DNA from: an uncultured Alphaproteobacteria bacterium
GTDB taxonomy: Bacteria; Pseudomonadota; Alphaproteobacteria; Micavibrionales; UBA2020
Length of the DNA stretch: 64,000 bases
Assembly (NCBI GenBank): GCA_966211335.1
Contig: CBIHNF010000001.1
Span: 730,847 to 794,846, forward strand
Direction of reading: 5' to 3'
Each line of letters begins with the position of its first letter. Positions within the stretch are counted from its first letter, which is position 1. Positions 2,829 to 58,995 of the stretch are shown here, piece after piece. Made by a program: the position numbers and the translations under genes. The notes below the pieces were generated by a model. That model had not been told where the DNA came from. It did no database searches and saw only the letters and a list, made by a program, of their open reading frames with translations.

Positions 2829-3629
2829 ATGAAATGTATTAAAACCCAAAAAGGCTTCACACTCGTCGAATTGGCGATCGTGATGACCATCATCGGTCTT
2901 CTGATCGGTGGTATTCTGAAGGGCCAGGAACTGATGGACAACGCCCGCGTCTCCGCAACGATCGCGCAGACCAAGGGTATTGAAGCCGCCACGACCAGCT
3001 TCCGCGACAGCTATAACTCGATGCCGGGCGATATTCCGAACGCCTCCACGCGCGTTCCGTCCTGCAACGCGTCCTGCAACGTTGTTGCGGCCACGGCTGG
3101 CGACGGCATCATCGGTACGGTTGCCGGTTTCTCCGCCAACTATAACCCGCAGCTAACCACCGCCCTTGGCGGTACCGTGACGGATGAAACCCAGCTGTTC
3201 TGGACCGAACTGCTGCTCGCCAACCTGACGTCGGGCTATACCGATGCGCCGATCCGCGCAACGCCGCCCGCACCGTCGTGGGGCATCACCCAGCCCGCAG
3301 CAAAAATCGGCGGCGGCTATTACGTCGGCTACGCCGTCGGCCTGATCGGCCTTAACTCGCCGATGACGGCAGGTTCCGGCCCGTCCGGCACCGTGCTGGT
3401 GCTGGCGCAGAGCCCGACCGCAGCTATCACTGGTACGGCTGGTAACAACCCGCTCACCCCGGGTCGTGCTGCCCAGATCGACCGCAAGCTCGATGACGGC
3501 AAACCCGGTACCGGCTTCGTCCAGGCTTATGGCGTTGCCACCAAGTGCTGGCAGTCTGCCGCTATCGCAGCCTACGACGAATCCGATACCCAGAAAGATT
3601 GCGGCCTGATCCTGCGTATTCAGGGCTAA
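2829..3629 (+). CDS. type IV pilin (prepilin, copy A)
   Basis: Class III signal MKCIKTQKG|FTLVELAIVMTIIGLLIGGIL with Glu5. C-terminal Cys pair (KCW...KDCG). GGGGAG RBS. Terminator follows. Confidence 0.85.
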   Translation: MKCIKTQKGFTLVELAIVMTIIGLLIGGILKGQELMDNARVSATIAQTKGIEAATTSFRDSYNSMPGDIPNASTRVPSCNASCNVVAATAGDGIIGTVAGFSANYNPQLTTALGGTVTDETQLFWTELLLANLTSGYTDAPIRATPPAPSWGITQPAAKIGGGYYVGYAVGLIGLNSPMTAGSGPSGTVLVLAQSPTAAITGTAGNNPLTPGRAAQIDRKLDDGKPGTGFVQAYGVATKCWQSAAIAAYDESDTQKDCGLILRIQG

Positions 3630-3726: not shown

Positions 3727-3754
3727 TTGTCAACGCGCGTCTTGGTACTATACT
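3727..3754 (+). promoter_or_regulatory. sigma70-like promoter of pilin copy B
   Basis: TTGTCA (3727-3732), 16-nt spacer, TATACT (3749-3754). About 65 nt upstream of ATG 3821. Confidence 0.45.
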
Positions 3755-3820
3755 GGATAAAGGTACTCTTATCCGCAAAAAATCTCGGGGCAGCGGTCAA
3801 CGGTTCAGCAAAGGAAATAT

Positions 3821-4618
3821 ATGCAACGCACATTTCAAAAAGGCTTCACACTCGTCGAATTGGCGATCGTGATGACCATCATCGGTCTTCTGATCGGTGG
3901 TATTCTGAAGGGCCAGGAACTGATGGACAACGCCCGCGTCTCCGCAACGATCGCGCAGACCAAGGGTATTGAAGCCGCCACGACCAGCTTCCGCGACAGC
4001 TATAACTCGATGCCGGGCGATATTCCGAACGCCTCCACGCGCGTTCCGTCCTGCAACGCGTCCTGCAACGTTGTTGCGGCCACGGCTGGCGACGGCATCA
4101 TCGGTACGGTTGCCGGTTTCTCCGCCAACTATAACCCGCAGCTAACCACCGCCCTTGGCGGTACCGTGACGGATGAAACCCAGCTGTTCTGGACCGAACT
4201 GCTGCTCGCCAACCTGACGTCGGGCTATACCGATGCGCCGATCCGCGCAACGCCGCCCGCACCGTCGTGGGGCATCACCCAGCCCGCAGCAAAAATCGGC
4301 GGCGGCTATTACGTCGGCTACGCCGTCGGCCTGATCGGCCTTAACTCGCCGATGACGGCAGGTTCCGGCCCGTCCGGCACCGTGCTGGTGCTGGCGCAGA
4401 GCCCGACCGCAGCTATCACTGGTACGGCTGGTAACAACCCGCTCACCCCGGGTCGTGCTGCCCAGATCGACCGCAAGCTCGATGACGGCAAACCCGGTAC
4501 CGGCTTCGTCCAGGCTTATGGCGTTGCCACCAAGTGCTGGCAGTCTGCCGCTATCGCAGCCTACGACGAATCCGATACCCAGAAAGATTGCGGCCTGATC
4601 CTGCGTATTCAGGGTTAA
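3821..4618 (+). CDS. type IV pilin (prepilin, copy B; mature part identical to copy A)
   Basis: Leader MQRTFQKG|FTLVE... Residues after the cleavage site are identical to copy A. AAGGAA RBS. Terminator follows. Confidence 0.85.
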   Translation: MQRTFQKGFTLVELAIVMTIIGLLIGGILKGQELMDNARVSATIAQTKGIEAATTSFRDSYNSMPGDIPNASTRVPSCNASCNVVAATAGDGIIGTVAGFSANYNPQLTTALGGTVTDETQLFWTELLLANLTSGYTDAPIRATPPAPSWGITQPAAKIGGGYYVGYAVGLIGLNSPMTAGSGPSGTVLVLAQSPTAAITGTAGNNPLTPGRAAQIDRKLDDGKPGTGFVQAYGVATKCWQSAAIAAYDESDTQKDCGLILRIQG

Positions 4619-4665
4619 GCTTTCCACCAAGACAAAAGAAGAGCCCGGTGCGACAGCACCGGGCT
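3836..4665 (+). repeat. direct repeat unit 2 (830 bp) of tandem pilin duplication
   Basis: See unit 1. Identity starts at the codons for QKG|F and ends in the terminator stem. Confidence 0.9.
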
Positions 4666-4671
4666 TTTTTT
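4640..4671. terminator. rho-independent terminator between convergent pilin genes
   Basis: agcccggtgc-GACA-gcaccgggct perfect stem followed by T7. An A-rich tract on the other side makes it usable in both directions. Confidence 0.8.
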
Positions 4672-4690
4672 ATAGACCGAAGAGTGTAAA

Positions 4691-5896
4691 TCAGGGGGAG
4701 CAGATGGCGTTGTTGGAGGCGTCGAAACCTGTAATGAACTTCCCTGTGGGGCAGGTGCGCGGGTTATAGAGCGTCGGGGCGAGGGCGGTGACACACTGCA
4801 GCGTGCCGCCGACAATGCCCTCCACAAGCCCGCCATTACAGTTCATGCCAAGCCCGCCGAAAATCTGCGGGTCAAAGCATTTGGTTCCGGAGGCATCGCA
4901 GACCTTGTCGGCATAGACGTTCTTCGCGCGCACTGTGCCGCGCACATCAAGATCGGCCGTCAGCGTGTTTGTATCCGTGCCAATGCCAACGCGGCCGCCT
5001 GTCTTGGTGTAGATAAGGCCCGTGCCCGCACTTGCCATCTTCCATTTGTCGGAGCTTCCTGAAATTTGGAAGATCATGAAGGGGTCGTCGTAATAAAAGG
5101 GGAGCGAGGCGGCGTCTGTGTTCAGCGAATAAAGGTTCGTATTGGCTGCACTCTGCGACAACAGGAACATAGAATCGCCGTTGCAGTTTTCCACGTCCCG
5201 CCCCGGCGGGGTGCAGGGCGCAACGAGCTTGCCGTTATAGTTGTAAGCGCCCTTGCCATTCTGGCCGGCAGAAAAAATAACGAAGGGAATGGCGTTGACC
5301 TGCAGGTTGCCGATTTTGGAGTTGCCGATCGTCCCATCTGCGGCGTTCTTGGAACTGATGGCGATAGCACCTATAAACTCGTTATAGTGCTTGTTGCCGC
5401 CCGAGGAGTCGGTGGAGCGCGTCATATATTCGGTAACCGTATAGGGGAGCTGGTTGTTCCAGCCGTCGAGAACGTCGGTATAAGCCGCGCCAAGCGTCAC
5501 ATAAGGCAGCGCGCCGGTTAACAAAGGGTCGGGTGTCGGCGCGGGATTGACGACGGGGCGCGCGCCGTTGATGCGGCAGACCTTGCCCGTACCGAAGCAG
5601 CCGAGGGCAGTGGTCGCCGGGCTGCATACCTCTTTGCCGGCGTTAGCGTTATCCGGCGGCAGCGAAGGATCTGCCGGGCAAGGCAGGCGGCCGTTTACGA
5701 ACAGGAACTGCTGCATTTTGTCAGTCGCAACCTGGAAAGCGGAGTCGTTGACGTTTTTAAGGCGCGCAATGCGGTATTGACGATAGCTTTGCAGGCAGGT
5801 GGCAACGGCCAGCGACACAATGCAAAGCAGGATCGCAACCTCTAGAAGCGAGAACCCGGCTTCGGACTTTTTCCTCAGTGCAAGCTTGCGGATCAT
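4691..5896 (-). CDS. large prepilin-type N-terminal domain protein (pilin-like adhesin paralogue 3, 401 aa)
   Basis: Start moved to ATG 5896, which has an AGGAGAG RBS 9 nt upstream. Leader MIRKLALRKKSEAG|FSLLEVAILL. Shares PCPA, SAGQNGKGAY, VGIGT..LDVRG and CPTGK..GF motifs with the two upstream genes. Confidence 0.8.
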   Translation of the reverse strand: MIRKLALRKKSEAGFSLLEVAILLCIVSLAVATCLQSYRQYRIARLKNVNDSAFQVATDKMQQFLFVNGRLPCPADPSLPPDNANAGKEVCSPATTALGCFGTGKVCRINGARPVVNPAPTPDPLLTGALPYVTLGAAYTDVLDGWNNQLPYTVTEYMTRSTDSSGGNKHYNEFIGAIAISSKNAADGTIGNSKIGNLQVNAIPFVIFSAGQNGKGAYNYNGKLVAPCTPPGRDVENCNGDSMFLLSQSAANTNLYSLNTDAASLPFYYDDPFMIFQISGSSDKWKMASAGTGLIYTKTGGRVGIGTDTNTLTADLDVRGTVRAKNVYADKVCDASGTKCFDPQIFGGLGMNCNGGLVEGIVGGTLQCVTALAPTLYNPRTCPTGKFITGFDASNNAICSP

Positions 5897-36440: not shown

Positions 36441-37350
36441 AATAGACGCTTTTTACAGTAAGGTATTCTTATGAAGTTAGTTTTAAGAAAATACATACGA
36501 CAGCTTGCTGTTTTACTGGTTATTTTCATGTTGGCTTTCGGGTTTTATTATAGCCGGCCGCAGAAAATGGGTAGCAATCTTACGACATCCATTAATGGTA
36601 GAGAAATAGAGCCATATTTAACGAAGGGCTTTTCAACAGCCAAAGATGACTGGATAGGATTAGGGTACACTAGTGCATTAATTTCAGAGTATTTAAAAAT
36701 CGCGTACGACGGTGGAAAAATAAGCGCAGATGATTTAGAGGCGTTGGACTTCCAAAACGGAAATCCATTAATCGGCTGGAAGCGGATTAATCAAAATACT
36801 CCGGGCGATGAAAGAACAGAATACATTTTCCCAAAAGGTTCATTCGAGGCGGTGAAAATTAAAAGTCAGGTTACGGCTTTTAGTGAAAATGGTGACGGAG
36901 AGGTTAAAATAAATCTGCGCCACGTCGCGCCCAACGAAGACGTTCTGTACTTGATTTTAACGAATGTCAGTGAATCTCATTGTCGCCCTAGAATTAGTGG
37001 TGAGACTGAGAAAAAATTTACAATCGCCGCTGACAATCATCAAGTTATAGATGAGCCGGGTTATATGTACGGATGTGGAAAAACTTTTGACAATCATAAT
37101 TACATTTTCTTACCGATAATTTCTAGAATTTATAACAACGATTCTAAATCGTTGGCATTCAAGAAAGAAGGGTATGCCTTTGCCATGAACTGCGCGCTTG
37201 GCGTGAGGGAGCCGCCGGTAAACTTTGTAAACAATGTCGATAAGTTTTTGATCGACATTCTTGTTAAAATTTTAAATTTTTAGAGTTTAGATCATGAAAT
37301 ATTACAGCCGAATAACCCTAGCTTCCTTTATTTCTATATTCTTTTTTTCT
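36441..37350. other. AT-rich compositional island
   Basis: Abrupt switch to AT-rich sequence and rare codons (AGA, ATA, TTA). GC-rich composition resumes inside the next gene at about 37350. Confidence 0.7.
36471..37283 (+). CDS. hypothetical membrane-anchored protein, atypical composition
   Basis: N-terminal TM helix LAVLLVIFMLAFGFYY. AT-rich codon usage unlike the neighbouring genes. Confidence 0.6.
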   Translation: MKLVLRKYIRQLAVLLVIFMLAFGFYYSRPQKMGSNLTTSINGREIEPYLTKGFSTAKDDWIGLGYTSALISEYLKIAYDGGKISADDLEALDFQNGNPLIGWKRINQNTPGDERTEYIFPKGSFEAVKIKSQVTAFSENGDGEVKINLRHVAPNEDVLYLILTNVSESHCRPRISGETEKKFTIAADNHQVIDEPGYMYGCGKTFDNHNYIFLPIISRIYNNDSKSLAFKKEGYAFAMNCALGVREPPVNFVNNVDKFLIDILVKILNF

Positions 37351-50883: not shown

Positions 50884-51396
50884 TCAATGGATATCGGTAA
50901 CAGGTTTCCAGTTATGAATTCGGGTCTTAAGTTCGCCTAGTTTTTCAGGAGTGAGTTTAGTAGCCAGTTGTCGACGTAGCACAATGCAGTAGTTATCGCT
51001 GACGGGCTTGACATTACAAGATACAGAAAGCCAAAAATAAGCCTCTTGCTTATTTGATGTAAAATTTACACCACCATACCGTCCTTCATTATATGCGATA
51101 GCCACCAAAATTTGTGCGCCCGTATCGCCGTGCTGTGCGGTGGTTAAGTAGTAATTAAAATTTTTATATGCAAAAAAGTTCGCCCAAATAATAGGCTGAA
51201 ATATAGCAATAGCTGCAAGGGTCAGGAAAAATTTATAAAACCTTTTCTTTTGCTCCTTGGAACGATGTTCGCGCCAGAAAATAAGACACCCTAAAAGAAG
51301 GGCGGCCAAGAAGCATAGTATGTTCAATAATAAATGAGTTTCGATACTCCACGGGCAGCTACCGGGGCATCTCATATAGTCGATTATCATTGCCAT
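50884..51396 (-). CDS. membrane protein with one Sel1-like repeat, AT-rich composition
   Basis: Two TM helices. AQILVAIAYNEGRYGGVNFTSNKQEAYFWLSVS is Sel1-like. Its stop is 1 nt from the NYN gene start. Confidence 0.5.
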   Translation of the reverse strand: MAMIIDYMRCPGSCPWSIETHLLLNILCFLAALLLGCLIFWREHRSKEQKKRFYKFFLTLAAIAIFQPIIWANFFAYKNFNYYLTTAQHGDTGAQILVAIAYNEGRYGGVNFTSNKQEAYFWLSVSCNVKPVSDNYCIVLRRQLATKLTPEKLGELKTRIHNWKPVTDIH

Positions 51397-52179: not shown

Positions 52180-52677
52180 TCAGAGCGCGAAGCTGCGCGG
52201 CAGCGGCTTGTCTTCCGGCTCCGGCAGGCCGGCGGCCTTGCGCAGCGTCGTCAGTTCCTTCTTCGCTTCCAGCAGCTGCTGGCGCAAAAGGTCGCATTCG
52301 TAATCCTTGCGCATGAAGCGCAGCTTCACGAGATAGTCATTCGCCTGTTCCGACGGCACGGCGGAGGCAAAATCAAAACCCTTGTCGACCAGCAGGCGGA
52401 ACATATCAACATTACCGGCATAGACGGTCGAGCGCAGGGAAGAATTGCTGATGGCGCGTGTGCCAGGTGCCGCCAGCAGCATTTCGGCGAGGCGCACCTG
52501 ATTTTTATCGACCGCGCGGGTGAGCGGGTCGTTGAGCGCTTCCGGCGGCGCGTCGATGTTCGACTTCAGCAGTTCCTGCAGCTGCGCGGTGTCGCCGTTT
52601 TTCACGGCGGCCATCAGGCTCCGGCGGTAGATGGTGACGGCATCATCGGTGCCGCCGAACAGGGTGCGCAGGCTCAT
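52180..52677 (-). CDS. ANK-like repeat protein (165 aa)
   Basis: LMAAVKNGDTAQLQELLKSNID, DPLTRAVDKNQVRLAEMLL and TVYAGNVDMFRLLVDKGFDF. Confidence 0.55.
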   Translation of the reverse strand: MSLRTLFGGTDDAVTIYRRSLMAAVKNGDTAQLQELLKSNIDAPPEALNDPLTRAVDKNQVRLAEMLLAAPGTRAISNSSLRSTVYAGNVDMFRLLVDKGFDFASAVPSEQANDYLVKLRFMRKDYECDLLRQQLLEAKKELTTLRKAAGLPEPEDKPLPRSFAL

Positions 52678-52688
52678 GGTGTCAGCTC

Positions 52689-53282
52689 CTAATCAAATAT
52701 CTTGGGCGCTTTGATGCGCGGCTTGTTCACGGGCACGCCGTGATTGGCTTCGTATATCTCTTTTTTAATCGCGCGTATTTCGCGCAAGGTTTCCTGCTGC
52801 AGCCGCACGGATTCCAGCGGCATAATTTCGGCGATGAATTTCTTCTGGTAGTCCTCGAGGGTTTTGACGAGTGTGGCGATGTCACTCCAGCGGGCTTTCT
52901 CCACCTTGTTCTTGAAGGTGTAGCCGGTGCTGTCGCCCCATTCGTTGTATTTCTTCTTGCGCTGGATGGCGGCTTGCTCCGCCTTCAGGTTTTCGACCGC
53001 ATGGGGGATATCCGCGCCGTTCACGACCAGCTCTTTCATGAACAGGAAGTTACGGGCGGCAGCCGCTTCCTGCAGCGGTTTGCCACCGGCATAATTCACA
53101 TCGGCTTCCGCCGCGATCGCGCGCTTGAAGACATGGCTGTCGCCGGTGCGGATGGCGCTGAGCAGGTATTCGTTGATACGGGTATGACGCTCCAGTGCCT
53201 CAAGTGCATCGTCCGGCGCGGAGGCATCGCCGAAAACGCGGGCAAGGCTGGCGGCATCGGGTGGGGGTGTCGGCATCGGCAA
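52689..53282 (-). CDS. ANK-like repeat protein (197 aa)
   Basis: LLSAIRTGDSHVFKRAIAAEADVN and GKPLQEAAAARNFLFMKELVVNGADI. Helical C-terminus. Confidence 0.55.
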   Translation of the reverse strand: MPMPTPPPDAASLARVFGDASAPDDALEALERHTRINEYLLSAIRTGDSHVFKRAIAAEADVNYAGGKPLQEAAAARNFLFMKELVVNGADIPHAVENLKAEQAAIQRKKKYNEWGDSTGYTFKNKVEKARWSDIATLVKTLEDYQKKFIAEIMPLESVRLQQETLREIRAIKKEIYEANHGVPVNKPRIKAPKIFD

Positions 53283-53361
53283 TTCCCGCGATAAATGGAT
53301 TCGTCAGAACAGCCCAAGTCTTACGACAAACGGCGTATTCTGTCAATGCGGGAGAAATTCA

Positions 53362-53982
53362 TCAACGAGTTGATTTGAAAGTCTTTTTCGGGCGGGGAGT
53401 GAGCTTGTCGCGGGGCGTCACATGGCGGCGGATATGCTGGATCGCGGAATCCAGCACGTAGCGCGGCGATTTGTCGGCGCGGATGACGCACCACGGCAGG
53501 TCGCGCACGGGGCGTTTGGAGGCGCCCTTGAATTGCCGCTGCACGACGCTCGGCGTTGCATCCGAGGCGCTGTCCTTGCGGCGGGCGACGCGGTCATAGA
53601 GCGTGCCGAGCGGCGCATGTAGGTAGAGGCCGATAAAATCGGCACCGTTGCGTGACGCCAGTTTTTCCTGCTTGTGGCGCGTGTCATGGTCGAGGAAGGT
53701 GCCGGTCACGACAACGCTTTTGCCGGCGCGCAAATGCTTGGCCGCCTGCGCATGCAGGTATGAAATCAGTCTTTCGCGGTTGTGCTTCGCATAGGCTTCC
53801 AGCGGCAGCGGCGTTTTGGGATCAACGCCGTGCATCTGCTTGTGCAGCACATCTGAATCGAGGATGACGAGGTCGGGATAGGCTTTGCCAAGGCTCTCGG
53901 CCAGCGTCGATTTGCCGCTGCCCGACATGCCGCCAATCGCAATCATACCCTTGCGTGCGGTAAATGGATTGGCTGCGTTCAT
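53362..53982 (-). CDS. P-loop kinase/ATPase (AAA_33-like)
   Basis: Walker A GGMSGSGKSTLAE. Start uncertain: ATG 53982 chosen, the track's TTG is at 54114. Confidence 0.6.
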   Translation of the reverse strand: MNAANPFTARKGMIAIGGMSGSGKSTLAESLGKAYPDLVILDSDVLHKQMHGVDPKTPLPLEAYAKHNRERLISYLHAQAAKHLRAGKSVVVTGTFLDHDTRHKQEKLASRNGADFIGLYLHAPLGTLYDRVARRKDSASDATPSVVQRQFKGASKRPVRDLPWCVIRADKSPRYVLDSAIQHIRRHVTPRDKLTPRPKKTFKSTR

Positions 53983-54188
53983 GGGCGGCGTTGCCCCGCC
54001 GGTAAAGACATTCGTGCCATGCTGATAAAGAATTCCCCCGTTATCGGCATTATTATAGCTATTTCCGTAATAAACTGTCAAGAGAATAGCTAGTGTATTG
54101 TTATTTAATGACAATTTTTAGCGCCATGGAACTGTCGCGAGGCTTAACGGTAAGCTGCTGCATTGGTTTTCAAAACAAGGAGCAGCCC

Positions 54189-54560
54189 ATGCGCGTAATG
54201 GTATTCGTGAAAGCGACGGAAGAGAGCGAAAAGGGCTTCAAGATGACGCCCGAAAATAAAATCCTGCTGGAGGAGATGGGCCGCTATAACGACGAACTTA
54301 TAAAAGCCGGCATTCTTGTGACCGCAGACGGGTTGAAAGAGTCTGCCGCCGGCAAGCGCGTCGCTTTTGACGGCAAGACCCGCACGGTCAGCGACGGTCC
54401 TTTCGAAAACCCGCGCGATCTTGTGGCTGGTTTCTGGCTCTGGGAAGTGAAGGACATGGATGAAGCGGTCGAATGGGTCAAGCGCTGCCCTAACCCCATG
54501 CCCGGCCCCAGCATCATCGAAATCCGCCCGCTGCACGGGCCGGAGGATTTTGAGGAGTAA
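54189..54560 (+). CDS. YCII-related (DGPF) domain protein
   Basis: ATG 54189 has an AAGGAG RBS. SDGPFENPRDLVAGFWLWEV motif. Confidence 0.75.
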   Translation: MRVMVFVKATEESEKGFKMTPENKILLEEMGRYNDELIKAGILVTADGLKESAAGKRVAFDGKTRTVSDGPFENPRDLVAGFWLWEVKDMDEAVEWVKRCPNPMPGPSIIEIRPLHGPEDFEE

Positions 54561-54571
54561 ATCCCCAAAAG

Positions 54572-54601
54572 AAAACCCCGGCGTTACGGGCCGGGGTTTT
54601 T
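54572..54601. terminator. bidirectional rho-independent terminator
   Basis: aaaaccccggc-gttacgg-gccggggtttt, between convergent genes. Confidence 0.8.
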
Positions 54602-54626
54602 ATGCTCCAAGGAGATGGAGAATTTT

Positions 54627-55610
54627 TTAGGCGACTTTAAAGACTTCGTCTTCGAAGGCTTCTTCCCATGAACCTTGGGTCGAGGCTTTAGAATATTCCG
54701 TCGCGCGGTTTTCGAAGAAGTTGGTGTGCTCGGCGCCGTTCAGCATCGCGTCCATCCAGGGCAGCGGGTTTTTCTCGATGCCGAAGACGGGGACGAGGCC
54801 GAGCTGGGTCAGGCGGCGGTCGCCGATGTAGCGGATGTAATCCTTCACTTCCTGCGCGGTGAGGCCTTCGACTTCGCCCATTTCAAAGGCGAGGTCGATG
54901 AAGGCGTCTTCATGGTGGATGATGGTCTTGCAGGCTTCCGTGATGTCGGTGCGGAGCTTTTCCGTCCAGACTTCCGGGTTTTCCTGGATGAAGGTCTTGA
55001 ACAGTTTGATGACGGAGAGCGTGTGCAGCGTTTCATCGCGCACCGACCAGGTCACGATCTGCCCCATGCCCTTCATTTTATTGAAGCGCGGGAAGTTCAT
55101 GAGCATGGCGAAGGAGGCGAACAGCTGCAGGCCTTCCGTGAAGCCGCCGAAAACCGCCATGGTCATGGCGATGCTTTCCTTGTCCTTCACGTTGAAGCTC
55201 TGCATGTAGTCGAACTTGTCCTTCATTTCCTTGTATTTCATGAAGGCCGAATATTCGACTTCCGGCATGCCGAGAGTGTCGAGCAGGTGGGAATAGGCCG
55301 CGATGTGGATCGTCTCGATGTTCGAGAAGGCGCAAAGCATCATCTGCACTTCGGTCGGCTTAAAGACCTGGCTGTAATGCTTCATGTAGCAGTTGTTGAC
55401 TTCGACGTCAGCCTGCGTGAAGAAGCGGAAGATCTGCGTCAGCAGGTTTTTCTCCGCCGGCGTCAGCTTCTTCTTCCAGTCGCGCACGTCTTCCGCCATC
55501 GGCACTTCTTCCGGCAGCCAGTGCACGCGCTGCTGCGTCAGCCAGGCTTCATAGGCCCAGGGATAGTAGAAGGGTTTGTAAACGTGGTTCTCGGTCAGAA
55601 GACGCGACAT
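54627..55610 (-). CDS. nrdB: ribonucleoside-diphosphate reductase beta subunit
   Basis: 327 aa, ferritin-like R2. Typical N-terminus and acidic C-terminal tail. Confidence 0.9.
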   Translation of the reverse strand: MSRLLTENHVYKPFYYPWAYEAWLTQQRVHWLPEEVPMAEDVRDWKKKLTPAEKNLLTQIFRFFTQADVEVNNCYMKHYSQVFKPTEVQMMLCAFSNIETIHIAAYSHLLDTLGMPEVEYSAFMKYKEMKDKFDYMQSFNVKDKESIAMTMAVFGGFTEGLQLFASFAMLMNFPRFNKMKGMGQIVTWSVRDETLHTLSVIKLFKTFIQENPEVWTEKLRTDITEACKTIIHHEDAFIDLAFEMGEVEGLTAQEVKDYIRYIGDRRLTQLGLVPVFGIEKNPLPWMDAMLNGAEHTNFFENRATEYSKASTQGSWEEAFEDEVFKVA

Positions 55611-55641
55611 TTTTTTCTCCGGTATTTTTGCTTATTCCCAA

Positions 55642-55995
55642 TTATACTTTGGCATATGTAGGTTGCAGGCGCTCGTCGTGCGGATTGTAATCGGGTCTGT
55701 TTTCTAAGAACACCTTGTCCGATATGATTAGATCCTTGATTTCCTCGACTTTAAAAGTTCTCCAAGGTGGATCTTGGTTGGATTTGCTGGCTCCAGCAAT
55801 TTGGTAACCAATCAAGACAGTCCTGCCATTTTCAAAGACTCCACAAGCATGGGGTTCAACTATTCTGACGCGGTCATCATAAATAAATTGGACTATTTGC
55901 CGCTTCTCTATTGCCAGCAATAAAGAAGGTGGCGGAGCTGCCGTGTATACTTTTGTGCTAGGCTTAGCCTTTTTTTTGGTCGGTTTAAAAAACAT
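55642..55995 (-). CDS. WYL-domain protein (117 aa), AT-rich
   Basis: IVQFIYDDRVRIVEPHACGVFENGRTVLIGYQ...PPWRTFKVEEIKDL fits the WYL pattern. Lies between nrdA and nrdB. Confidence 0.55.
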   Translation of the reverse strand: MFFKPTKKKAKPSTKVYTAAPPPSLLLAIEKRQIVQFIYDDRVRIVEPHACGVFENGRTVLIGYQIAGASKSNQDPPWRTFKVEEIKDLIISDKVFLENRPDYNPHDERLQPTYAKV

Positions 55996-56168
55996 TAGCT
56001 TTTGACCTGAAGTAATACTTGTCCCTTGGGGGACAGGCAGACGCCGCCCGCGCAGGGCTCGATAAGGTCAAGGCGGGAAAGCTTCTCGAGATGCGAGCGG
56101 GAAACCGGCTCGCAGCGCTCGGGGTTCGACAAAATTTCAAGCGTGGTCAGTTCAGCTGTGCTCAACAT
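55995..56168 (-). CDS. small winged-helix-like protein (57 aa, below the ORF-track cutoff)
   Basis: My translation: MLSTAELTTLEILSNPERCEPVSRSHLEKLSRLDLIEPCAGGVCLSPKGQVLLQVKS. GGAG RBS. TAATG overlap with the WYL gene start. Confidence 0.45.
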   Translation of the reverse strand: MLSTAELTTLEILSNPERCEPVSRSHLEKLSRLDLIEPCAGGVCLSPKGQVLLQVKS

Positions 56169-56235
56169 GATTTGTTGCTCCGTGACGTTTCTTTTTAACG
56201 TGAAATTATCGGCAATAGATTATTGGCAAGCCCAA

Positions 56236-58056
56236 TTACTGGCAAGCCAGGCATTCGTCGTACTTGTTGCCCGTCTCCGATGACCGCGCGGTGGCGGAGG
56301 TCTTCGACTTGCCATCGCCACCATGCGCGTTTTCGGCGCGCTGGATGGATTTGGAGCGGCAGTAGTACAGCGACTTGACGCCGCGCTTCCAGGCCATCCA
56401 GTGAATCTGGTGCAGGTCGCGCTTGTGCACGTCTGCCGGCAGGAAGATGTTCAGCGACTGCGCCTGGCACACATAGGGCGTGCGGTCGGCGGCATGTTCG
56501 ATCAGCCAGCGCTGGTCCAGCTCGAAGGCCGTCTTGAAAACGTCCTTCTCGTCGGCCGAGAGGAAGTCGAGATGCTGGACGGTGCCTTCATTGGTGATGA
56601 TGGACGACCAGGTCTCTTCGTCGTTCTTGCCCTTCTGCTCCAGCAGCTGCTCGAGGTACTTGTTGCGCACGAAATGCGAACCGGAAAGGGTTTTATGTGT
56701 GTAGGCGTTGGCCGTGTTCGGCTCGATGCCCGGCGATGCGCCGCCCGTGATGATCGAGATCGACGCCGTCGGCGCAATCGCGATCTTGTTGGAGAAGCGT
56801 TCCATGATGCCGTATTCCTTGGCATCGGGGCAGGGGCCGCGCTCGTGCGCCAGTTTAATGGAGGCCGCGTCGCAATCTTTCTTGATGTGCTTGAACATGC
56901 GCTTGTTCCAGACTTTCGCCATCACGGATTCAAGCGGGATCATTTTGGACTGCAGGAAGGAGTGGAAGCCCATGACGCCAAGGCCAATCGAGCGCTCGCG
57001 CATGGCGGCGTATTTGGCGCGCATCATGCTGTCCGGCGCACGCGTGATGAAATCGGTCAGCACGTTGTCGAGGAAGCGGGTGCAGTCTTCGATAAAGGTC
57101 GGGTGATCTTCCCATTCCTCGAAATTCTCGAGGTTGAGGGAGGAGAGGCAGCAGACCGCGGTGCGTTCCTGGCCGTGATGGTCTTTCCCCGTCGGCAGCG
57201 TGATTTCCGAGCAGAGGTTGGACATCTTCACGTTGAGGCCCGCAAGCTTGTGATGCTCGGGGATCGCGCGGTTGACGTGATCGGAGAAGAGCAGGTACGG
57301 CTCGCCCGTTTCGATGCGGGCGGTGAGGATGCGGATCCAGAGGGCGCGCGCATTGATGCGCTCCACAACCGAACCGTCTTTCGCCGACAGCAGTGCCCAT
57401 TCTTCGTCTTTTTCGACAGCGCGCATGAACGCATCGGAAATGACAACGCCATGGTGCAGGTTGAGGGCTTTGCGGTTAGGGTCGCCGCCGGAAGGTTTGC
57501 GGAGTTCGACGAACTCTTCAATTTCCGGGTGATGGACGGGCAGGTACACAGCGGCAGAACCGCGGCGCAGCGAACCTTGGGAAATCGCGAGGGTCAGGCT
57601 GTCCTGAACGCGGATGAAGGGGATGATGCCGGAGGTCTTGCCGTTGCGGCCGACTTTTTCGCCGATGGAGCGCAGGTTACCCCAGTAGGAGCCGATGCCG
57701 CCGCCGCGGGAGGCGAGCCAGACGTTCTCGTTCCAAAGGTCGACGATGCCGGACAGGCTGTCATCGCATTCGTTCAGGAAGCAGGAGATGGGCAGGCCGC
57801 GGTCGGTGCCGCCGTTCGAGAGAACGGGGGTTGCGGGCATGAACCAGAGTTTCGAGATATAGTCGTACAGACGCTGCGCATGCGCAGAATCGTCGCTATA
57901 GAACATCGCCACGCGGGCGAAGAGGTCCTGGAAGGACTCGCCCGGCAGCAGATAGCGATCCAGAAGGGTGGCTTTGCCGAATTCCGTTAAATTAGCGTCC
58001 CGTGCGCGGTCAATCGTGACTTTCGCGCCCTTCGCAACCTGTGCGACATCGAACAT
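56236..58056 (-). CDS. nrdA: ribonucleoside-diphosphate reductase alpha subunit
   Basis: Active-site MSNLCSEITLP. C-terminal YDECLACQ. Start set at ATG 58056 (GGGGAGAAG RBS). The track extension to 58200 lacks an RBS. Confidence 0.9.
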   Translation of the reverse strand: MFDVAQVAKGAKVTIDRARDANLTEFGKATLLDRYLLPGESFQDLFARVAMFYSDDSAHAQRLYDYISKLWFMPATPVLSNGGTDRGLPISCFLNECDDSLSGIVDLWNENVWLASRGGGIGSYWGNLRSIGEKVGRNGKTSGIIPFIRVQDSLTLAISQGSLRRGSAAVYLPVHHPEIEEFVELRKPSGGDPNRKALNLHHGVVISDAFMRAVEKDEEWALLSAKDGSVVERINARALWIRILTARIETGEPYLLFSDHVNRAIPEHHKLAGLNVKMSNLCSEITLPTGKDHHGQERTAVCCLSSLNLENFEEWEDHPTFIEDCTRFLDNVLTDFITRAPDSMMRAKYAAMRERSIGLGVMGFHSFLQSKMIPLESVMAKVWNKRMFKHIKKDCDAASIKLAHERGPCPDAKEYGIMERFSNKIAIAPTASISIITGGASPGIEPNTANAYTHKTLSGSHFVRNKYLEQLLEQKGKNDEETWSSIITNEGTVQHLDFLSADEKDVFKTAFELDQRWLIEHAADRTPYVCQAQSLNIFLPADVHKRDLHQIHWMAWKRGVKSLYYCRSKSIQRAENAHGGDGKSKTSATARSSETGNKYDECLACQ

Positions 58057-58704
58057 CGACTTCTCCCCGTAATACATTTTTTTGTTTTTGTTTTCCGCTT
58101 CGACTTTCCGCGCTAAGCCATTCATGTTGAATGAAAAGCACCCGCGAATGATCAGGCTAAGGCACAAGACCTTGGGGCCCGATGAAACAAAGCATACCAC
58201 ATCTTGGTGGGCTGTCTATAAACGGGAGCCGACTAAATTTTCTGCAACAGTCACTTTTTCTCTTGAAAAATAGCGAAGCCCAATAAAAAACCGCGCCGCA
58301 GCATCGCAAGTTTTTTTGCGCTGCAATCGGCGGTCAGAGCTTCGCGCATTCTCCTAATAAACATATGGTAAGCGGAGGGCGCAAAATCCAGTTTCAGAGG
58401 CGTCTTGAGGTTTGATTTTAGCCTTGCCGTCTTAAAAAACCGTTAAGCGAAAAGGCCGCGCCGCGTCGGCAACCCGCGTGGGTCACAAAGTTTTATTGGC
58501 GGATAATTTTTTGGATGATTGTTATGCGTGTGGGCTTATCATACCCCATTTTGCACTTTTTTTACGCATTTTCTGCATTTATTGCACCGCAACACGATAA
58601 TGAATAACGAAGCCGCCGCTTGTGAGTCTATTCCTTGCGGAACCGGGCTTCCGAGAGACCGGCAATACGATCTCCCCGACATACATGTAAGAAAGTAACT
58701 AACA

Positions 58705-58995
58705 ATGCGACCCGATTCCGCGCGCAGCAACCGCTTTGCGCGCAGCCTGACGATTGCCTTTTTGCTGGCCGGCCTTGGCAGTGAAGCCGTCCATACCGAA
58801 GAGGTGCATAACCCCCACGGCAACCGCCGCGAACGTATTGAAGAAATGCGCCAGCGCAGCTTTGAAGCCGCGCACAGCCGCCACGCGCAGCGCAATTTCA
58901 ACGATGGCAACGGCGGGCCTGATCCGCATCCGCTGCTGTCGCAACTGCGCTATGGCCTGCGCCGCCGTGATAAGAAGGGCAGCCAGCCCGCCTGA
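58705..58995 (+). CDS. small hypothetical secreted protein (96 aa)
   Basis: Signal-like N-terminus. Two hairpins and a T-tract follow the stop. Weak RBS. Confidence 0.35.
   Translation: MRPDSARSNRFARSLTIAFLLAGLGSEAVHTEEVHNPHGNRRERIEEMRQRSFEAAHSRHAQRNFNDGNGGPDPHPLLSQLRYGLRRRDKKGSQPA

Follow-up and report, generated by a model that had tools for sequence, protein, structure and literature searches.

To our knowledge, all proteins with a WYL domain studied so far are multi-domain proteins, and most of them are transcription factors with a helix-turn-helix (HTH). The WYL domains of DriD, PafBC and PIF1 bind single-stranded DNA (ssDNA), and WYL1, an accessory protein of Cas13d, binds RNA and serves its effector by nucleic-acid binding and not as a transcription factor. 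For the WYL domain, whose fusions have also been listed, a ligand groove lined by conserved basic residues and frequently a cysteine was predicted (Makarova et al. 2014, PMC4012209). Type I restriction-modification (R-M) operons can harbour embedded genes, a recognised class which is enriched for defence functions (PMC11411939; bioRxiv 10.1101/2024.01.29.577857). Here we describe a WYL gene of 117 codons that lies between nrdA and nrdB, the genes of a class I ribonucleotide reductase (RNR), in a stretch of 64,000 nt from an uncultured alphaproteobacterium of the Micavibrionales (assembly GCA_966211335.1, contig CBIHNF010000001.1, positions 730,847 to 794,846), in the following called the window. 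This gene is an HTH-less variant in an unusual place.

A stand-alone WYL protein encoded between nrdA and nrdB

A preliminary description of the window, made without database searches, had claimed that the interval between nrdA and nrdB holds two small co-oriented genes, one for a 57-amino-acid (aa) winged-helix-like protein, here called sm57, and one for a WYL-type protein, which overlap in a TAATG and together form a split regulator inserted at this place. On the minus strand the gene order is nrdA, sm57, the WYL gene and nrdB, and the interval from the nrdA stop codon (56236-56238) to the ATG of nrdB (55610) comprises 625 nt. The coordinates, the peptides and the overlap were confirmed, and both open reading frames (ORFs) are coding and not conserved non-coding spacer, judged by the codon-position entropy of sm57 and by non-synonymous changes in the WYL gene that are far below the synonymous ones.

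The 117-aa protein turned out to be WYL-type and Sm-like as proposed. The PADLOC model for WYL matches it with an E-value of 1.5e-6, and the Pfam profile PF13280 matches over model positions 6-68 of 70 with an E-value of 1.4e-3, which at 19.1 bits versus a gathering cut-off of 21.8 bits is a near miss. The same profile is matched by 14 out of 38 sampled family members (E<=0.01, best E 3.8e-6), and two members of the same clade (P0005, P0006; P numbers denote proteins of the family and L numbers the compared loci) carry a precomputed match to it. The AF2 model of the window protein (pLDDT 85, pTM 0.75) consists of one helix followed by five strands, and its Sm-like / SH3 beta-barrel superposes on solved WYL domains. 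In a Foldseek search of the PDB the ranks 1-17 are occupied by DriD (C-domain), PafBC and BrxR (probability 1.0, E 2e-3 to 6e-2, TMq about 0.5), and the ranks thereafter by Sm/Lsm proteins. Three regions can be distinguished: a disordered, basic and Lys-rich N-terminal tail (residues 1-20, with pLDDT below 50 at residues 6-9), the WYL barrel (about 21-95) and a conserved tail (96-117) with the pattern NRPDYNPxDxRL...A.V. The barrel is followed by just these 22 residues with one short strand, there is no WCX-type C-terminal domain, and no HTH family match was found in the protein with Pfam, NCBIfam or in the AF2 model. The gene encodes a single-domain, stand-alone WYL (Sm-like beta-barrel) protein without a DNA-binding domain.

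RNR genes are classic targets of homing endonucleases and selfish nucleases. A corresponding reading of the insert was rejected, as the protein consists of a WYL barrel throughout and contains no nuclease domain.

Among the seven sequences of the WYL clade 42 residues are invariant. These include R32, R44, R58, R79, H49 and C51, a pattern that at the sequence level resembles the published description (PMC4012209) and may belong to such a groove. Within the clade non-synonymous differences amount to 0.25-0.35 per site versus 0.8-0.9 per site for synonymous ones, and the ORF is intact in all copies. On these sequence comparisons the WYL gene is real and maintained by purifying selection.

A HMMER scan of 1.84 billion representative proteins identified 2585 clusters (50% identity) of such mini-WYL proteins at E<=1e-3, mostly 95-105 aa long, single-domain and matching the barrel plus the C-terminal tail. 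Plasmid copies are labelled "WYL domain-containing protein" by PGAP and have AAA-ATPase or SbcCD-like genes as neighbours, and a scan of metagenome contigs revealed only distant relatives of about 97 aa in unrelated contexts, for example after valS. In other proteins of the wider mini-WYL family, fusions to DinB, TPR or AbiEii/DUF6036 nucleotidyltransferase domains occur. Many stand-alone members of about 130-170 aa (P0033-P0103) possess N-terminal Sec/Tat-like signals, e.g. MNRRGFMGAAGLLAV... and MQRRGFLRAVGAAVA..., which are absent from the clade of the window protein; one would not expect export of a WYL-like barrel that is presumed to sense nucleic acids.

Outside nrd operons, six contexts of the clade could be read, and in six out of six the WYL gene is part of a type I R-M operon, placed between its hsdS and hsdR genes. 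The proteins encoded there (P0004, P0005/P0006, P0007, P0181, P0182 and P0183) are 49-61% identical to the window protein. Downstream of them follow KwaA/KwaB (Kiwa), a ThsB-like TIR protein (PDC-M50B), PDC-S21 (DUF4917, in two contexts), DUF6119 or hsdR, and P0004 is a member without downstream effector. Upstream we found hsdS, DUF2188/PDC-S16, an 80-aa membrane-like protein or a Csx27-like protein of 209 aa, and in none of the six contexts an HTH gene or sm57. The neighbours with PADLOC-type scores are KwaA/KwaB, the ThsB-like TIR/PDC-M50B, PDC-S21, PDC-M48B and PDC-S16, and Bro-N and RhuM genes occur within R-M operons bearing the WYL gene as well. The one-base overlap of the WYL start with the stop of the upstream gene is also present in R-M contexts (L003, L035/L036, L050). 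The GC content at third codon positions (GC3) of the WYL gene in these loci is 0.45-0.46 (L002, L003), near that of the window copy, or 0.53 (L035). The window copy itself is not located between hsd genes but sits between sm57 and nrdB. The contexts of its relatives suggest an origin from a defence island.

The WYL gene had been called conspicuously AT-rich, and this is the case: its GC content is 0.429 and its GC3 0.42, compared with 0.603 and 0.81 for nrdA, 0.557 and 0.82 for nrdB and 0.569 and 0.69 for sm57, and with a median GC3 of 0.71 over the 63 long ORFs of the window. Out of 25 lineages only three harbour the gene, namely the window organism, of which two further metagenome assemblies (L007, L008) contain it in identical form, L001 and L039. 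The three carriers are non-sister on a tree of nrdA and nrdB, and in all of them the GC3 of the WYL gene is 0.41-0.43 versus 0.64-0.82 in the flanking genes. The closest relative of the window organism, L015 (nrdA 98.2%, nrdB 98.8% and sm57 92% identical), lacks the gene, and the distance between sm57 and nrdB is 39 nt there versus 384 nt in the window. Because the 31-nt spacer in front of nrdB in the window is unrelated to the 39-nt spacer of L015 (L015/L016 alignment), the native spacer including the ribosome-binding site of nrdB must have been replaced. The last approximately six codons of sm57 are AT-rich and differ from the closest relative; therefore the left edge of the foreign DNA lies probably inside the 3' end of sm57, and these codons were probably replaced by the inserted segment, too. 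By its composition and distribution the WYL gene is a later horizontal acquisition and a compositionally foreign insertion. The claimed insertion thus holds for the WYL gene, with its 39-nt counterpart in L015 and its foreign GC3, but not for a joint insertion of the pair, as sm57 is resident in 25 out of 25 lineages.

A gap of 17-30 nt separates the WYL gene from sm57 in L001 and L039, where the WYL gene has its own strong Shine-Dalgarno sequence. The alleles from nrd contexts are 59-64% identical to each other versus 55-63% to those from R-M contexts and form no clade by identity, so that a single vertical origin of the nrd-context alleles is neither supported nor excluded by this measure. 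No junction motif, target-site duplication or shared flank was found when the insertions of three nrd contexts and four R-M contexts were compared. The longer sm57-nrdB spacers of WYL-less genomes contain no WYL remnants; palindromic repeat elements are found there. A tblastn search of phage genomes gave no match, a scan of viral contigs only two distant relatives (33-36%) and Foldseek against viral models only uncharacterised proteins. Due to these sparse viral matches a phage origin of the WYL gene is not supported.

The spacer between sm57 and nrdB is a permissive slot which has repeatedly captured small foreign elements. In L018 it is occupied by a dinD gene of 295 codons (4248-5135; NCBIfam equivalog NF008573 with 369 bits, Pfam Bro-N, PADLOC PDC-S13 with E 1.6e-112), which the sister L025 lacks. 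In addition, palindromic elements of about 100 nt, resembling repetitive extragenic palindromes or miniature inverted-repeat transposable elements (REP/MITE-like), are located in the slot of L017 (4172-4290), L020 (4169-4281) and L027 (478-603), an example being CGTCATCCCCGCGAAAGCGGGGATC ... GATCCCCGCTTTCGCGGGGATGACG.

The 57-aa protein sm57 and the nrdAB operon

The winged-helix-like character attributed to the 57-aa protein is supported by its AF2 model (pLDDT 90.5), although a significant family profile is missing. The model comprises a helix (4-14), a loop (15-23), a second helix (24-32), a hairpin (36-45) and a last helix (47-56); the canonical middle HTH helix is absent, with the loop in its place. 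The top Foldseek matches are winged HTH (wHTH) domains, namely HucR and other MarR proteins, CggR and PhiH1 repressor-like proteins (TMq 0.65-0.77, E 0.02-0.4). A profile of sm57 run against the PDB sequences gave weak matches only (E 0.007-0.6), the best one being a SorC-family wHTH (E 0.0066). No significant family was found in Pfam, NCBIfam, PADLOC or PHROG, and no Pfam match was better than E 0.1. The profile search suggested earlier as a check therefore found WYL by the PADLOC model and nearly by PF13280, but no HTH family for the 57-aa protein. Judged by the model, sm57 would have a truncated, minimal winged-helix-like fold. Its identification as NrdH, NrdI or YfaE was rejected, as neither family, fold nor cysteine pattern matches, and a literature search gave no description of sm57.

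The homologues of sm57 fall into 23 clusters, all of 55-60 aa. In the invariant block HLEKLSRLDLIEP the codon-position entropy is 0.11, 0.03 and 0.97 bits for the positions 1, 2 and 3 (25 loci), and this variation at the third position is a signature of purifying selection on the protein. By this signature sm57 is a real and strongly constrained protein-coding gene. In all 25 lineages examined it is located between nrdA and nrdB, in 22 of them without the WYL gene; the comparison of nrdA-nrdB spacing in relatives thus speaks for a constant gene and not a spacer in the case of sm57. A genome scan found sm57 in 20 species-representative metagenome-assembled genomes labelled Micavibrio or Alphaproteobacteria (a few have other labels), and the arrangement nrdA-sm57-nrdB without the WYL gene is present in 20 out of 20 species-representative genomes as well as in L009 and L013, two loci from metagenomes. 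The gene was met solely in the nrdA-nrdB spacer of this one alphaproteobacterial lineage. The distribution indicates that the nrdA-sm57-nrdB operon is ancestral in Micavibrio-like Alphaproteobacteria and that sm57 is an old resident.

Two near-invariant cysteines of sm57, C39 and C44, are placed one on each strand of the wing hairpin (window, L009, L013, L015-L034). In a few lineages (L001, L039, L030, P0016) they are replaced jointly (IEPG..GP.L), and they may form a cross-strand disulfide or a redox switch. L009 has an additional 87-aa ORF between nrdA and the sm57 homologue (3744-4007). It is without a Pfam match and resembles a divergent sm57 paralogue (..EELGLL..H.LRLLDEGFLEE...G.GLSRKGRDF..).

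The flanking genes (Table 1) are genuine RNR genes, as both score above the Pfam and NCBIfam equivalog cut-offs and lie as adjacent alpha and beta genes on one strand. NrdA matches Ribonuc_red_lgN and Ribonuc_red_lgC of Pfam and over its full length NF006577 of NCBIfam with 1030 bits, and the order nrdA before nrdB is common to the 25 related loci. According to an alignment of 20 genomes with a conserved GGGGAG Shine-Dalgarno sequence, nrdA starts with the ATG of MFDVAQ at 58053 and not at the longest-ORF start at 58200.

Table 1. Features of the nrdA-nrdB region; positions refer to the window.
Feature	Position	Strand	Remarks
promoter-like site and operon leader	58054..58218	-	upstream of nrdA; conserved in 20 genomes
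nrdA, class I ribonucleotide reductase alpha subunit	56236..58053	-	605 aa, without ATP-cone
sm57, minimal winged-helix-like protein (predicted)	55995..56168	-	57 aa; sequence MLSTAELTTLEILSNPERCEPVSRSHLEKLSRLDLIEPCAGGVCLSPKGQVLLQVKS
TAATG junction (gcTAATGttt)	55993..55997	-	sm57 stop and WYL start overlap by one base
stand-alone WYL-domain protein	55642..55995	-	117 aa; horizontally acquired
nrdB Shine-Dalgarno spacer	55611..55641	-	31 nt, carries GGAG
nrdB, class I ribonucleotide reductase beta subunit	54627..55610	-	327 aa; Pfam Ribonuc_red_sm E 3e-74; NCBIfam NF007186 567 bits

A scan of positions 54400-58800 for promoters and terminators found a single sigma-70-like site, located upstream of nrdA (TAGACA, 16 nt, TG-TATGCT at 58218..58191), a count that is about the chance expectation; within the nrdA-nrdB interval it found neither a promoter-like site nor a convincing intrinsic terminator. 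This site, which leaves a leader of about 140 nt, is probably the sole promoter for all four genes. Translational coupling of sm57 and the WYL gene is suggested by the one-base TAATG overlap.

The region upstream of nrdA (58054-58330, minus strand) is conserved across 20 Micavibrio-like genomes. The conserved blocks include GTCAAGA and CCCAAGATGTGG, and the blocks invariant in the leader are GTCAAGA, CCCAAGATGTGGTATGCT, ACAAGG, TCGAAGCG with an A-run, and GTATTACGGGGAG. Rfam had no match in spacer, leader or operon, neither at the gathering thresholds nor at E<=1. RNAalifold found a weak consensus in the leader; there the Shine-Dalgarno sequence may be paired to a CUCC-type stretch. The conserved region could represent an operator and/or an element of translational control.

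Some further observations concern the surroundings. The genes adjoining nrdB are conserved across the lineage and encode an AAA_33/Zeta-toxin-like kinase and small ankyrin-repeat-like proteins (window 52180-54114, minus strand; L001, L007, L009, L013), and in the window organism a YCII protein is encoded near nrdB (window and L007). This gene set fits a host- or prey-interacting lifestyle. Two other window ORFs look foreign, at 36471-37283 (plus strand) and 50884-51396 (minus strand), with a GC3 of 0.40 and 0.41 and no significant Pfam or PADLOC match; they may be other recent acquisitions. The adjacent ORFs at 2829-3629 and 3821-4618 (plus strand, 266 and 265 aa) have an identical composition profile and look like tandem paralogues.

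Explanations for the WYL gene

We consider it probable that the WYL gene encodes a WYL sensor or adaptor without HTH and, having come in by horizontal transfer, rides in a permissive spacer, its function being inferred. The gene would have no promoter of its own but depend on that of nrdA for its transcription and on coupling to sm57 for its translation. The barrel together with the basic tail would probably bind single-stranded nucleic acid or a nucleotide-type ligand, in analogy to DriD and other WYL proteins, for which ssDNA binding is covered by references listed in PMC12409362, and to the groove predicted for the domain (PMC4012209). By contacts with proteins or RNA the protein would then serve as a sensor or adaptor and not as a classical HTH transcription factor, and its position in the RNR operon would be a permissive, well-expressed slot and not a designed regulatory circuit with sm57.

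Several points weigh against this explanation. NCBIfam has no match for the WYL protein, and the profile of the mini-WYL family did not find any WYL structure among the PDB sequences; only the fold search did. Because the window protein is also below the Pfam gathering score, its membership in the WYL family rests on PADLOC, on its relatives and on the fold. Due to the Sec/Tat-like signal peptides in many members, nucleic-acid sensing is not assumable for the whole family. The nrd-context alleles have saturated synonymous sites, occupy the same slot and are all AT-rich, and three independent captures at one slot without a junction motif are awkward. Three such captures, a transfer among relatives via the conserved flanks, or selection for AT-richness are all possible. 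Finally, the TAATG coupling is compatible with a functional link between sm57 and the WYL protein, in the window genome alone.

Such a link is the core of the original interpretation, in which sm57 and the WYL protein form a two-chain HTH-WYL regulator: WYL would sense a ligand, sm57 would bind DNA and the pair would regulate the nrd operon. The folds fit, WYL-like and wHTH-like, the two genes of the window are adjacent, co-oriented and joined by TAATG, and the strongly conserved region upstream of nrdA could hold an operator. Comparative genomics contradicts the idea, since sm57 does without WYL in 22 out of 25 lineages and the WYL clade does without sm57 or an HTH neighbour in six out of six other contexts. 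Where the two genes meet elsewhere (L001, L039) they are separated and the WYL gene has its own Shine-Dalgarno sequence, the sequence of sm57 shows no consistent change in WYL-bearing lineages, and the two differ in composition (GC3 0.69 versus 0.42). Furthermore, known WYL regulators have N-domains of the HTH_11/DeoR type, which sm57 does not resemble (it matches MarR, CggR and SorC best), and no fused sm57-WYL form exists among the 150 best representatives of the WYL family. We therefore regard a split regulator as improbable. Of the preliminary description, the observation was confirmed and the interpretation partly supported, as it had the folds right and was correct on the insertion of the WYL gene.

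It is also rather unlikely that the WYL gene has no function for this host and is carried along neutrally or selfishly, as a piece of a defence cassette (a WYL head lacking the effector) which landed in a tolerant spacer and will be lost in the end. Its patchy presence in 3 out of 25 lineages, its foreign composition, the dinD gene and repeat elements held by the slot elsewhere and the missing effector gene, which follows most of the relatives in R-M contexts, would agree with this. However, in the three lineages that have the gene in the nrd context its reading frame is unbroken although synonymous divergence is saturated, none of the 42 residues invariant in the clade has changed, and non-synonymous changes are much rarer than synonymous ones. 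P0004 is likewise without a downstream effector in its R-M context, and the two additional metagenome assemblies of the window organism contain the identical gene. Very doubtful in our opinion is a co-option for RNR, by which the protein, as an Sm-like binder of RNA or ssDNA, would tune nrdB translation or RNR activity under ssDNA, infection or replication stress and so link the supply of dNTPs to the sensing of damage or phages. In R-M contexts the WYL gene is found directly upstream of the presumed controlled module, a position taken here by nrdB; the same slot captured dinD, which is linked to DNA damage; three diverged alleles are kept at one place; and characterised WYL domains bind ssDNA or RNA according to references listed in PMC12409362. 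On the other hand, our literature search revealed no link between WYL proteins and RNR operons, and 22 out of 25 related lineages run the operon without the WYL gene.

A wider scheme, to which we give little probability, would see the mini-WYL clade as the common sensor or regulator head of operon-embedded cassettes (WYL plus Kiwa, TIR, PDC-S21 or DUF6119) that gates the downstream module by nucleic-acid sensing without promoter binding. The nrdAB operon of predatory Micavibrio-like bacteria would have repeatedly recruited this head and, separately, dinD, coupling dNTP synthesis to the sensing of ssDNA, infection or replication stress, possibly with sm57.

Returning to the acquired sensor or adaptor that we favour, its interest lies in a bare WYL barrel with a basic tail that is kept under selection and whose relatives front interchangeable defence effectors in type I R-M operons. 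The arrangement without HTH points to an action of WYL that needs no DNA-binding domain, and the cassettes are a compact set for testing this. In addition, an essential metabolic operon is seen to be a repeated landing site for genes from defence islands, with WYL three times and dinD/PDC-S13 once, plus the palindromic repeats, and the nrd slot bears on the spread and expression of "embedded" genes. The undescribed and very strongly conserved sm57, built into the RNR operon of a predatory lineage, is a candidate for a local regulator or an RNR partner. Even if nothing of this is functional, the locus is a well-documented case of horizontal insertion into an operon spacer.

Comparison with known systems

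The best structural matches of the WYL protein are the HTH-WYL regulators BrxR/CapW, DriD and PafBC, which possess the same WYL/Sm-like barrel. They share with the relatives of the window protein an association with phage-defence loci (PMC12255303). While these regulators are about 280-330 aa long and contain a wHTH in the chain as well as a WCX domain, the window protein has 117 aa, neither of the two domains and the conserved tail of 22 residues instead. In place of the wHTH it carries the disordered basic N-terminal tail, and no conserved HTH gene is adjacent. Because there is no wHTH in the chain, it cannot act as a one-chain DNA-binding regulator.

For sm57, the closest known folds are the winged helices of MarR, SorC-CggR and the PhiH1 repressor, with which its recognition helix and wing align at a TM of about 0.7. 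In contrast to these, sm57 comprises only 57 aa, the second HTH helix is a loop, and a dimerisation or ligand domain is missing.

The accessory protein WYL1 of Cas13d contains an RHH (ribbon-helix-helix) domain and is linked to CRISPR, neither of which is the case for the WYL gene of the window. With the genes embedded in type I R-M operons (TgvAB, PrrC and the PDC candidates; "guilt by embedding") the non-nrd members of the clade share the location, alongside Kiwa, TIR and PDC-S21, whereas the window copy sits in the essential metabolic operon nrdAB and is not accompanied by an effector gene. Related to the window protein are also the single-domain WYL proteins of about 97-100 aa, which are annotated by PGAP and otherwise uncharacterised, and whose core and C-terminal motif are homologous to those of the window protein. 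Compared to them, the clade of the window protein has an extra basic N-terminal tail of about 20 residues and is, outside Micavibrio, tied to the slot between hsdS and hsdR.

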